A stretch of 64,000 nt of DNA from positions 9,736,001 through 9,800,000 of the forward strand of contig CM097885.1 in the NCBI GenBank assembly GCA_044892525.1. Reading direction: 5' to 3'. Both the position numbers and the translations under genes were made by a program. Shown here in pieces: positions 39,084-40,514 of this stretch (positions are counted from its first letter, which is position 1; each line of letters starts with the position of its first letter). A model generated the notes under the pieces. It saw nothing but the letters and a program-made list of their open reading frames with translations. It had not been told where the DNA came from and ran no database searches. This stretch comes from Schmidtea polychroa. Taxonomy: Eukaryota.

Positions 39084-40514
39084 ATGTCTTTAAGAGTTGA
39101 TAAAAATAAACCATATTGGAGATGTGAAAGTTGTAATTGTCAAGTTAGAAAACATCATAAAGCAAGACATTTAAAAACTAAAAAACATTTGAAGGCTCAT
39201 GGGGGAGAGGGTCACGGTGGAAAGGGCTCTGGGGGCGATCTTCAATCTTCAAAAACAACATCCAGAATCCTCAAACCTTTTACAACTGAAAAATATCCGG
39301 GTGAAAGACACTTATTCCACCATAACTATACAGGACCTGGAACTCGATTAGATATTCGACTTGATGAAAATAATAATCCTAAACCTGGAGAAGAACCAAT
39401 AAATAGAGTTGATCAAGCTGCTTTAAAACATGATATTGCTTATAATTCTGAAGACCTTAGAGACAGACACCTTGCAGATGTAAATTTAATACATGATTTA
39501 AATAATATAGAAAATCCATCAAGAGGAGAAAAGATTCAAAGAGCCTTAGTTAAATTAGCAATGAAAGGTAAGATTTTTATAGGAGCAGGACTTGGACACC
39601 CCCTCCCTAGAATAGCAAAAGATGTTGCTAATAAAAAAATCCTCGAACAAGCAAACGTTGAATCCAAGACTGATTCTACAAATATACAAACCCCAACAGA
39701 ATCACAAATAAAATATGCCAACGAATTACACCATGAATTTAGAAAAAATAAAAAATATTTAAAAGTTCAAGTACATGAAAAAGATCAAACATGGTCTGCA
39801 GATTTAGTCTTTATGCCAACCAAATCATCAGACCCTGAAAAATATAAAATAATTTTAACAGTAATAGATTTATATACAAGATTTGCTTTTGCAAGATGTT
39901 TAGAAAATAAAACAGGATATTCCATTACAGAAGCATTTGAAAATATATTTGAAGAACATCAAAGAATTCCAAAATATTTATGGTGTGATAAAGGAACAGA
40001 ATTTTATAACAAAGTTTTTACAAAGTTTTTAAATGAAAATGATATTAAATTATATTCAACAGAAAACGAAGGAAAAGCAGTCGTAGTTGAAAGATTAAAT
40101 AGAACATTAAAAAATAAAATGTGGAAATATTTTACTGCTATTGGAAAACAAAAATGGAACAATGAATTGTTACAAAAGATTGTAAATGAATATAATAATG
40201 ATGTACATAGTTCTATAAAATCAACACCTTTAAATGCTTCCTTGAATCCTTTGGAGCTCATAAATCCTGTTGAAAATGATGTTATTGTTGATACAACCCC
40301 CATAAAACCAAAGTTTAAAATTGGTGACCGAGTAAGAATATTTAAATATAAAAATAAATTTGAAAAAGGATTCACAGCAAAATGGACAAATGAAATTTTT
40401 ATTATAAATAAAATACATTATACAACTCCAATAACATATAGCATCATTGATTTAAATAATGAAAAAATATTAGGTAGATTTTATAATAATGAGTTACAGA
40501 AAACAGATTTTTAA
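39084..40514 (+). CDS. Zinc finger-PLA2-like-retroviral-type (rve) integrase fusion
   Basis: CxxC...H...H finger; YTGPG and DQAALKHDIAY (parvovirus-type PLA2); DDE core WSADL / CDKGTEF / VERLNRTLK; C-terminal KFKIGDRVRI...WTNEIF. Confidence 0.92.
   Translation: MSLRVDKNKPYWRCESCNCQVRKHHKARHLKTKKHLKAHGGEGHGGKGSGGDLQSSKTTSRILKPFTTEKYPGERHLFHHNYTGPGTRLDIRLDENNNPKPGEEPINRVDQAALKHDIAYNSEDLRDRHLADVNLIHDLNNIENPSRGEKIQRALVKLAMKGKIFIGAGLGHPLPRIAKDVANKKILEQANVESKTDSTNIQTPTESQIKYANELHHEFRKNKKYLKVQVHEKDQTWSADLVFMPTKSSDPEKYKIILTVIDLYTRFAFARCLENKTGYSITEAFENIFEEHQRIPKYLWCDKGTEFYNKVFTKFLNENDIKLYSTENEGKAVVVERLNRTLKNKMWKYFTAIGKQKWNNELLQKIVNEYNNDVHSSIKSTPLNASLNPLELINPVENDVIVDTTPIKPKFKIGDRVRIFKYKNKFEKGFTAKWTNEIFIINKIHYTTPITYSIIDLNNEKILGRFYNNELQKTDF

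Follow-up and report, generated by a model that had tools for sequence, protein, structure and literature searches.

A 64,000-nt stretch of Schmidtea polychroa DNA (contig CM097885.1; hereafter, the window) contains an open reading frame (ORF) in which a phospholipase A2 (PLA2) of the parvovirus type is joined to an integrase, which raises the question of why a lipase and an integrase should be encoded as one protein. The initial annotation read this ORF, from the letters alone, as zinc finger, PLA2 and integrase separated by candidate protease sites, and took it for a virion-packaged polyprotein that couples membrane penetration to integrase delivery. The coordinates (39084-40514), the length (476 aa) and all the quoted motifs proved to be present as described.

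The ORF is enclosed by a Maverick/Polinton of 15,471 nt (~15.5 kb; Table 1). Specifically, the element has the three features by which Maverick/Polintons are recognized, namely a length of 15-20 kb, terminal inverted repeats and a 6-bp target-site duplication, and Pfam detected in it both a double jelly-roll capsid protein and an A32-like ATPase. The capsid protein carries LYGG, a strict adenain-type motif, near its C-terminus, and this motif is present in 26 of 30 genome copies. As initially annotated, pX is a separate gene, whose product aligns weakly with adenovirus PX (9lr9_E) at the GG site (E = 0.55), and the core protein encoded downstream of it is one that we provisionally label PZ-like. 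The nearest Atlas clusters of the protease scored 0.96-0.97, with Peptidase_C5 on 10-62% of their members; Pfam and PDB sequence searches with this protease returned no adenain match, and the proteases of related loci match PF00770 weakly (E = 0.004-0.008). Homologs of the probable minor capsid/penton protein and of the 1618-aa ORF, which we take to be a protein-primed family B polymerase by its visible polymerase motifs, occur in related Polinton loci. No second PLA2 gene was found within the 15.5-kb element.

Table 1. Features of the Polinton and of its zinc finger-PLA2-integrase ORF (positions in the window)
Feature	Position	Strand	Basis
Maverick/Polinton element	37106..52576		Terminal inverted repeats, ends AGTAGT...ACTACT, 6-bp duplication, gene set
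Target-site duplication GAGAGT, left copy	37100..37105		Sequence
Target-site duplication GAGAGT, right copy	52577..52582		Sequence
Left terminal inverted repeat, 299 nt	37106..37404	+	2 mismatches against right repeat
Right terminal inverted repeat, 299 nt	52278..52576	-	Repeat comparison
Major capsid protein	37696..39036	+	Pfam DJR-like PF21738, E 1.9e-26
Zinc finger-PLA2-integrase ORF, 476 aa	39084..40514	+	ORF list, Pfam, copies, model
C2H2-type zinc finger, aa 14-35	39123..39188	+	Four ligands C14/C17/H29/H35 kept in 24/24 copies
Candidate upstream cut GG|D, aa 50-52	39231..39239	+	24/24 copies; homolog tally; disordered segment
Parvovirus-type PLA2 domain, aa 73-169	39300..39590	+	Pfam, conservation, predicted fold
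Candidate downstream cut K163-x-x-x-G167-x|G169	39570..39590	+	Homolog conservation
rve integrase (D240, D302, E336), beta-barrel C-terminal domain, no chromodomain	39699..40511	+	Pfam, predicted fold
A32-like packaging ATPase	40519..41325	-	Pfam Pox_A32 PF04665, E 3.2e-7
pX-like core protein, own ORF, GG|ILP and several GxG motifs	41341..41844	+	Adeno_PX, E 0.003, below cut-off
Probable core protein with strict IEGQ|G motif	41878..42717	+	ORF list, motif scan
Putative adenain-like (clan CE) cysteine protease	42726..43202	+	Nearest Atlas clusters
Probable minor capsid/penton	43237..44019	+	Label inferred from gene position; no Pfam match
Presumed protein-primed family B polymerase, 1618-aa ORF	47353..52209	-	Visible polymerase motifs; Pfam: zinc finger only

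Some further features of the window concern the element and its surroundings. Similar C2H2-type fingers are found on three ORFs of the element (39123-39188, 45621-46178 and the polymerase N-terminus near 52200). On the (-) strand, the ORF parts at 52625-53458 and 36646-37128 form one transposase-like ORF, presumably of the MULE type, that was apparently split by the element. At 19361-22928 lies a degraded LTR retrotransposon with 183-nt direct repeats (97% alike) and, on the (-) strand, gag-knuckle and reverse-transcriptase-like fragments. The host genome is AT-rich, of animal type and 781 Mb in size.

The PLA2 and integrase domains given by the initial annotation were borne out by Pfam, which placed Phospholip_A2_4 (PF08398; E = 6.6e-9, score 36.4 bits, curated cut-off 23.9) at aa 76-157 and rve at aa 231-324 (E = 8.9e-12), both above the curated cut-offs. 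Residues Y82-G86 form the Ca-loop of the PLA2 part and are followed by D110, the H116-D117 dyad, Y120 and D132, so that the Ca-loop, HD dyad, Tyr/Asp and predicted fold of a parvovirus-type PLA2 were all found in the ORF. The catalytic triad of the integrase is kept in 24/24 genome copies. Pfam found no Chromo domain in the ORF, which terminates after the beta-barrel domain, and did not call the zinc finger, whose four ligands were read from the sequence.

The structure model of the full ORF has a mean pLDDT of 85.4, with disordered segments at aa 40-58 (pLDDT <50) and 168-176. Whole-protein fold searches returned integrase matches only, and the integrase part resembles foamy virus integrase (Z = 21.2, rmsd 4.2, 250 residues aligned). 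When modelled alone (pLDDT 86.8), the PLA2 part has entomopoxvirus and densovirus VP1 PLA2 domains as its top matches (Foldseek E = 2.6e-4 to 1e-3), which is consistent with the annotated PLA2 fold. Among solved structures, rice PLA2 came first (Z = 7.8, rmsd 3.7, 91 aligned), a modest score for a helical domain and inside the range usual among helical bundles. A profile built from 58 PLA2 relatives matches dependoparvovirus-type VP1 chains (E = 2e-4).

A stop or frameshift between the two domains in other copies, the result that the initial annotation had named as speaking against it, turned out to be rare. The genome search yielded 89 scored candidates, 86 of which match nearly full-length, with 75 of these 86 being stop-free. 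Since this search favours intact copies, 12 copies chosen by a distant PLA2-only query were added (42 in total). Among the 41 PLA2-integrase junctions in this set, 40 are in frame and 38 lie in one continuous ORF, and the junction linkers have 12 different lengths (103-145 nt). An assembly artefact or single-copy accident was rejected on the basis of the 86 near-full-length matches and the 40 in-frame junctions, as was a frameshift within the window's own genome family, in which a single junction (L145) is out of frame. Of 30 copies, 26 are open, and the removal of two duplicates left 24 unique intact copies. Their pN/pS values are 0.26 for the finger, 0.19 for the PLA2 and 0.21 for the rve core, compared with 0.63-0.72 for the linkers. 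The PLA2 is conserved as strongly as the integrase, and the fusion is real and under selection. No second PLA2-bearing family was seen among 150 scored of 2,164 candidates, all of which are 34-40% identical to the distant query.

Beyond this genome, 816 database relatives pass the 1e-10 threshold. A survey of how common the fusion is, suggested with the initial annotation, showed that 109 of the best 120 of these 816 carry both Pfam domains; one of the 120 is named from the coral Oculina patagonica. The annotated PLA2 signature is intact and near-invariant in this set: each of H116, D117, Y120, D110 and D132 is conserved in 114-117 rows out of 116-117 aligned, with H116 present in 116/116 and both Y120 and D132 in 117/117. 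The rest of the architecture varies. A finger like that of the window occurs in 12 of the best 120 of 816 homologs, the others having DUF5679 or nothing at this place, and the N-terminal zinc finger appears to be an exchangeable module. The PLA2-integrase linker spans 5 to 252 aa among relatives. Two in-frame proteins (P0090 and L077) have an insert of ~250 aa between the domains. Viral contig searches with the window protein, with P0354 and with the junction pattern gave no match, and neither did an Atlas search with aa 1-205 of the ORF.

Next, we consider the candidate protease sites at the two boundaries. The strict adenain consensus is (M/I/L)xGG|x or (M/I/L)xGx|G. This consensus has 0 matches in the 476-aa ORF, the downstream FIGA|G having F at P4, and among the best 120 of 816 homologs the strict form occurs in ~11/113 downstream sites and in 2/62 upstream GG sites. 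Hence, the glycine motifs that the initial annotation noted at both boundaries are there, and their assignment to adenain in the strict sense did not hold. Its glycine linker (GGEGHGGKGSGG) proved private to the window copy among the 24 unique intact copies, which nevertheless share the last GG before DLQ.

Upstream, the best 120 of 816 homologs have GG in 69 cases and GxG in 4, start right at the boundary in 17, show neither motif in 21 and lack the region in 9. The downstream motif is more constant: G167 is found in 119/119 and K163 in 118/119 homolog rows (best 120 of 816), and the G-x-G form in 23/24 genome copies. A second glycine follows the invariant one at P1 or P1' in 105 of 119 homologs, as compared with 14 of 1,204 background glycines from the integrase part. 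The GG|X and GX|G forms are mutually exclusive at this boundary (Fisher p = 1e-5, uncorrected for kinship) and interchange at least three times on the tree. The protease of mavirus, of clan CE, cuts GG|X and GY|G (GX|G) according to the accessible text of Born et al. 2018 (PMC6048507). As a motif, this mavirus-type substrate pattern is present at the domain boundaries, and both candidate cuts fall in the segments predicted to be disordered (aa 40-58 and 168-176). As the sites depart from the strict P4 rule, the protease of the element would need another P4 preference. The downstream P4 is mostly K/R (83/119), with F in the window's family; at the pX site, P4 is K/R/H in 28/28 copies where the site was found (30 examined), which makes a basic-tolerant P4 plausible for this protease. 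Counting against the polyprotein reading, the window copy has a helix of low amphipathicity behind GG|D (moment 0.15; the median among homologs is 0.54). Myristoylation following cleavage at G|G was set aside by the sequence rule for this modification, because Asp follows Gly.

Alternatively, the 55-kDa protein might stay whole, with the PLA2 serving as a membrane-binding or targeting domain that replaces the lost chromodomain and the GxG being a mere helix cap. In the model, G167 ends the predicted helix H147-169. The GxG motif also closes the PLA2 part of proteins that carry different tails, PLA2X types among them, and may therefore have come with the domain as a structural cap. The lack of a strict adenain site in the ORF also fits an uncleaved protein, as does the absence of a long C-terminal tail from 94 of 120 homologs (best 120 of 816). 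However, the boundary alternates in an either/or manner between GG|X and GX|G, the same motif recurs at protease-integrase junctions (see below), some in-frame fusions among relatives retain the chromodomain, and a linker of such variable length is unlike that of a docked domain pair. Taken together, these points make the uncleaved protein a decidedly unlikely reading, and we retain cleavage at the two boundaries as the preferred one.

A side case is P0192, a single ORF that contains pX, a window-like C2H2 finger and PLA2 with GG and GxG motifs between them, and that ends in an S-K-N tail of the frameshift type described below.

Relatives outside the genome show how the integrase may be linked to the PLA2 in other ways. 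The 109 loci gathered by an integrase profile search comprise 48 unfused, 10 fused, 31 with the PLA2 adjacent in a separate ORF and 20 truncated. Among 35 readable PLA2-integrase junctions in outside loci, 20 are -1, 10 are in frame and 5 are +1, and when both halves are intact the numbers are 14, 6 and 1, respectively. An in-register canonical heptamer is present in 13 of the 20 -1 junctions. Two of the 20 (L032 and L104) are in-frame types whose integrase is itself broken. Roughly half of the -1 junctions consist of long A-runs that occur in 0, +1 and -1 versions in related loci, a pattern that homopolymer indels can explain; these junctions and the +1 junctions (5/35) were left out of the frameshift evidence.

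What remains is a clean -1 class of ten loci (L070, L071, L073, L093, L094, L103, L112 and the later-found L155-L157), in which L093 and L103 have broken integrases and L155 and L156 are near-identical. In each, A_AAA_AAC stands in register, the 0 frame reaches a stop 0-12 codons further on and the integrase lies in the -1 frame, which has no usable ATG; in L073 and L094, for which full translations were made, no Met precedes the first catalytic Asp in the integrase frame, and the earliest one comes four residues after it. L155 and L156 hold a complete Polinton gene set, and L155-L157 share with the window the gene order capsid-PLA2-integrase. A 12-bp stem begins ~5 nt downstream of the heptamer in L073 and L155-L157 (z = -3.4 to -4.6) and a 9-bp stem lies downstream in L112 (z = -2.7); none was found in L071 (z = 0.1) or L070. 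In the 12-bp stem all 36 cells pair and two pairs change on both sides, in three distinct sequences, a result that 107 of 500 shuffles also reach. The overlap of PLA2 and ATG-less integrase at A_AAA_AAC is a candidate for programmed -1 ribosomal frameshifting, as predicted from this anatomy.

The 0-frame product predicted for such loci has a counterpart among the short DUF5679-PLA2 proteins (P0353-P0472; 4 of 120 without a scorable site). K-N occurs within 12 aa of the GxG in 106 of 116 of these proteins, versus 12% expected and 11 of 114 in-frame fusions, and is preceded by S, T, P or A in 102 of the 106. Since these proteins are kin, the K-N count shows conservation, not independent origins. 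The window itself differs from the -1 relatives in that its ORF is in frame, its linker has no in-register heptamer and its integrase lacks the chromodomain that they carry.

In four further loci the integrase is fused to the protease (L042:2740-4248, L085:274-1803, L097:128-1471 and L123:535-1899). PLA2 is absent from these proteins, whose junctions read IVGR|G, LTGA|G, KRGS|G and VTGS|G, and they sit at no fewer than two separate places on the integrase tree. This quick IQ-TREE of 109 integrases (41 from protein matches, including the window, and 68 from loci) placed the window in a wholly in-frame group of 28 rows (support 99), nested in a group of 75 rows (support 89) in which 72 integrases are core-linked and 3 stand alone. 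The -1 label requires at least four changes across well-supported branches; the root is a midpoint root, so no order of events is claimed.

Two observations on individual loci stand apart. L099 contains three tandem PLA2/integrase units in 6 kb, and both of its readable junctions are -1. The Polinton contigs of L155, L156 and L157 were placed in bacterial/archaeal GTDB bins, where they are most likely misbinned eukaryotic viral DNA.

These relatives also bear on a reading in which the fusion reflects gene compaction only, translation of the integrase being initiated within the ORF (at M160 or close by) on a transcript of its own, with incidental read-through. M160 is present in 24/24 copies; 74 of 116 homologs have a Met within the final PLA2 helix, and a single one of the 116 lacks any Met between aa 133 and 214 (both counts from the best 120 of 816). 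Nevertheless, for the PLA2 to be produced by itself a stop would have to follow it, and of the 41 genome junctions 38 are open and 40 keep the register; moreover, the integrase frame of the clean -1 relatives offers no usable ATG, whereas most stand-alone integrases begin with their own Met ahead of the domain. We therefore judge an internal start to be very unlikely.

On balance, the ORF probably encodes a core polyprotein by which the integrase enters the particle. It would be made as one protein and packaged, after which the adenain-like protease of the element would cut it at GG|D (aa 51/52) and GA|G (aa 168/169), converting the uncut 55-kDa precursor into a basic finger peptide of 5.7 kDa, a PLA2 of 13.3 kDa and an integrase of 36.2 kDa. 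By analogy with parvoviruses, the freed PLA2 may help to breach the endosomal membrane, and the freed integrase would reach the nucleus along with the genome. The polyprotein reading of the initial annotation was thus strengthened by the relatives and by mavirus, and two of its supports, the glycine linker and the strict P4 rule, fell away. If the protein is cut, the coupling that it proposed would consist in packaging and stoichiometry, not in a physical link during entry. In the window family PLA2 and integrase would be made constitutively at 1:1, while relatives may ration the integrase by the predicted -1 frameshift just past the PLA2 GxG or join it to the protease.

The protein could also be processed and yet act within the cell, in intragenomic transposition, with the PLA2 acting on membranes inside the cell, such as the nuclear envelope or vesicles, or during egress, not in entry. 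At least 150 PLA2 matches in this one genome, with copies 88-99% identical in protein, show amplification inside the genome, and the available text of a 2026 preprint (10.64898/2026.06.19.733378) indicates that virions of animal Maverick-Polintons have yet to be seen. Against this, the capsid, ATPase, protease and pX genes are retained in 4/4 other copies inspected, although the capsid frame is interrupted in some; PLA2 serves parvoviruses as an entry factor, and an endosomal-escape role has already been proposed for Polinton lipases (PMC4642659, in part); and mavirus virions contain the integrase together with a cleaved predicted hydrolase (PMC6048507, in part). Why an entry enzyme should share one selected reading frame with the integrase, bounded by motifs of a kind that a related protease cuts, is hard to explain for a purely intracellular transposon, and we regard this alternative as unlikely.

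Should the packaging interpretation be right, it has implications beyond this locus. We consider it an even call whether a large Polinton lineage independently evolved a Gag-Pol-like strategy, in which the integrase is never made alone and is instead the tail of a core protein across a protease site, with lineages switching repeatedly between in-frame and programmed -1 frameshift versions. If so, A_AAA_AAC and the hairpin would set the PLA2:integrase ratio, and animal Polintons would have a first concrete route for integrase packaging, with a virus-like maturation that can be tested. The frameshift and protease-fusion versions in relatives make the fusion in the window part of a general, testable rule. 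There is also a consequence for gene prediction, as automatic annotation starts the integrase of -1 relatives at a Met past the first catalytic Asp and -1 elements may be scored as broken though they are not.

The two-domain PLA2-integrase architecture is already visible in precomputed Pfam tables. In the accessible parts of the literature we found neither a PLA2-integrase fusion nor a frameshift leading into a Polinton integrase described, though Repbase or adintovirus annotations may already label the fusion. Specifically, term searches of Barreat 2021, Stephens 2024 and Krupovic 2014 found neither PLA2 nor phospholipase, and the fusion was not found in the available text of Yutin 2013, Yutin 2015, two 2026 preprints and PMC12567637. 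As far as their accessible sections go, PMC5803895 treats PLA2 as a separate capsid-like gene, Geisler 2018 has it as its own gene, and Buck 2024 predicts -1 frameshifts only for penton and hexon-adenain. The element itself is of the ordinary Polinton type, and the expression mode of its integrase is a variant for which we found no description.

Adintoviruses and other animal Maverick-Polintons (Polintoviricetes) resemble the element in size, terminal repeats, 6-bp duplication, rve integrase, ATPase and capsid genes and the parvovirus-type PLA2, and also in the polymerase and protease as presumed here. In adintoviruses, the PLA2 of PLA2X is followed by a pX-like domain at the C-terminus (Starrett et al. 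2021, PMC8502044), and a C-terminal chromodomain has been called distinctive of their integrase (Starrett 2021; Buck 2024; both as accessible in part). In contrast to PLA2X of the Alpha adintoviruses, the PLA2 of the window is the N-terminal part of the integrase ORF and pX is separate, and the integrase lacks the distinctive chromodomain. The element shares with mavirus the GG|X / GX|G substrate pattern and, probably, a clan CE protease; the mavirus integrase (MV02) and hydrolase (MV13) are separate products, the latter of the alpha/beta type and not a PLA2. With the parvovirus VP1-unique PLA2 (PF08398), the domain has in common the Ca-loop GPG, the HD dyad, Tyr, Asp and the predicted fold, and it differs in lying off the capsid protein, in an insertion after the Ca-loop and in the Gly motifs at its bounds.

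Adenovirus protein VI is trimmed at both ends by adenain, has a short basic C-terminal peptide and lyses membranes through an amphipathic helix, not enzymatically. It is a membrane-active core protein (PMC11071296, in part), as the PLA2 part is predicted to be. Its basic peptide resembles the 0-frame tails of the -1 relatives. In the Gag-Pol of retroviruses and LTR retrotransposons, the integrase is the C-terminal part of a structural precursor and is freed by the element's own protease, and in-frame and -1 frameshift versions exist within one lineage. The fusion may answer the same problem, namely how to load an enzyme into the virion by appending it to the end of a structural precursor. However, the window holds a DNA element with a jelly-roll capsid, no reverse transcriptase and a putative cysteine instead of an aspartic protease, and the carrier of the integrase is a small PLA2 core protein or, in some relatives, the protease, not the capsid protein.
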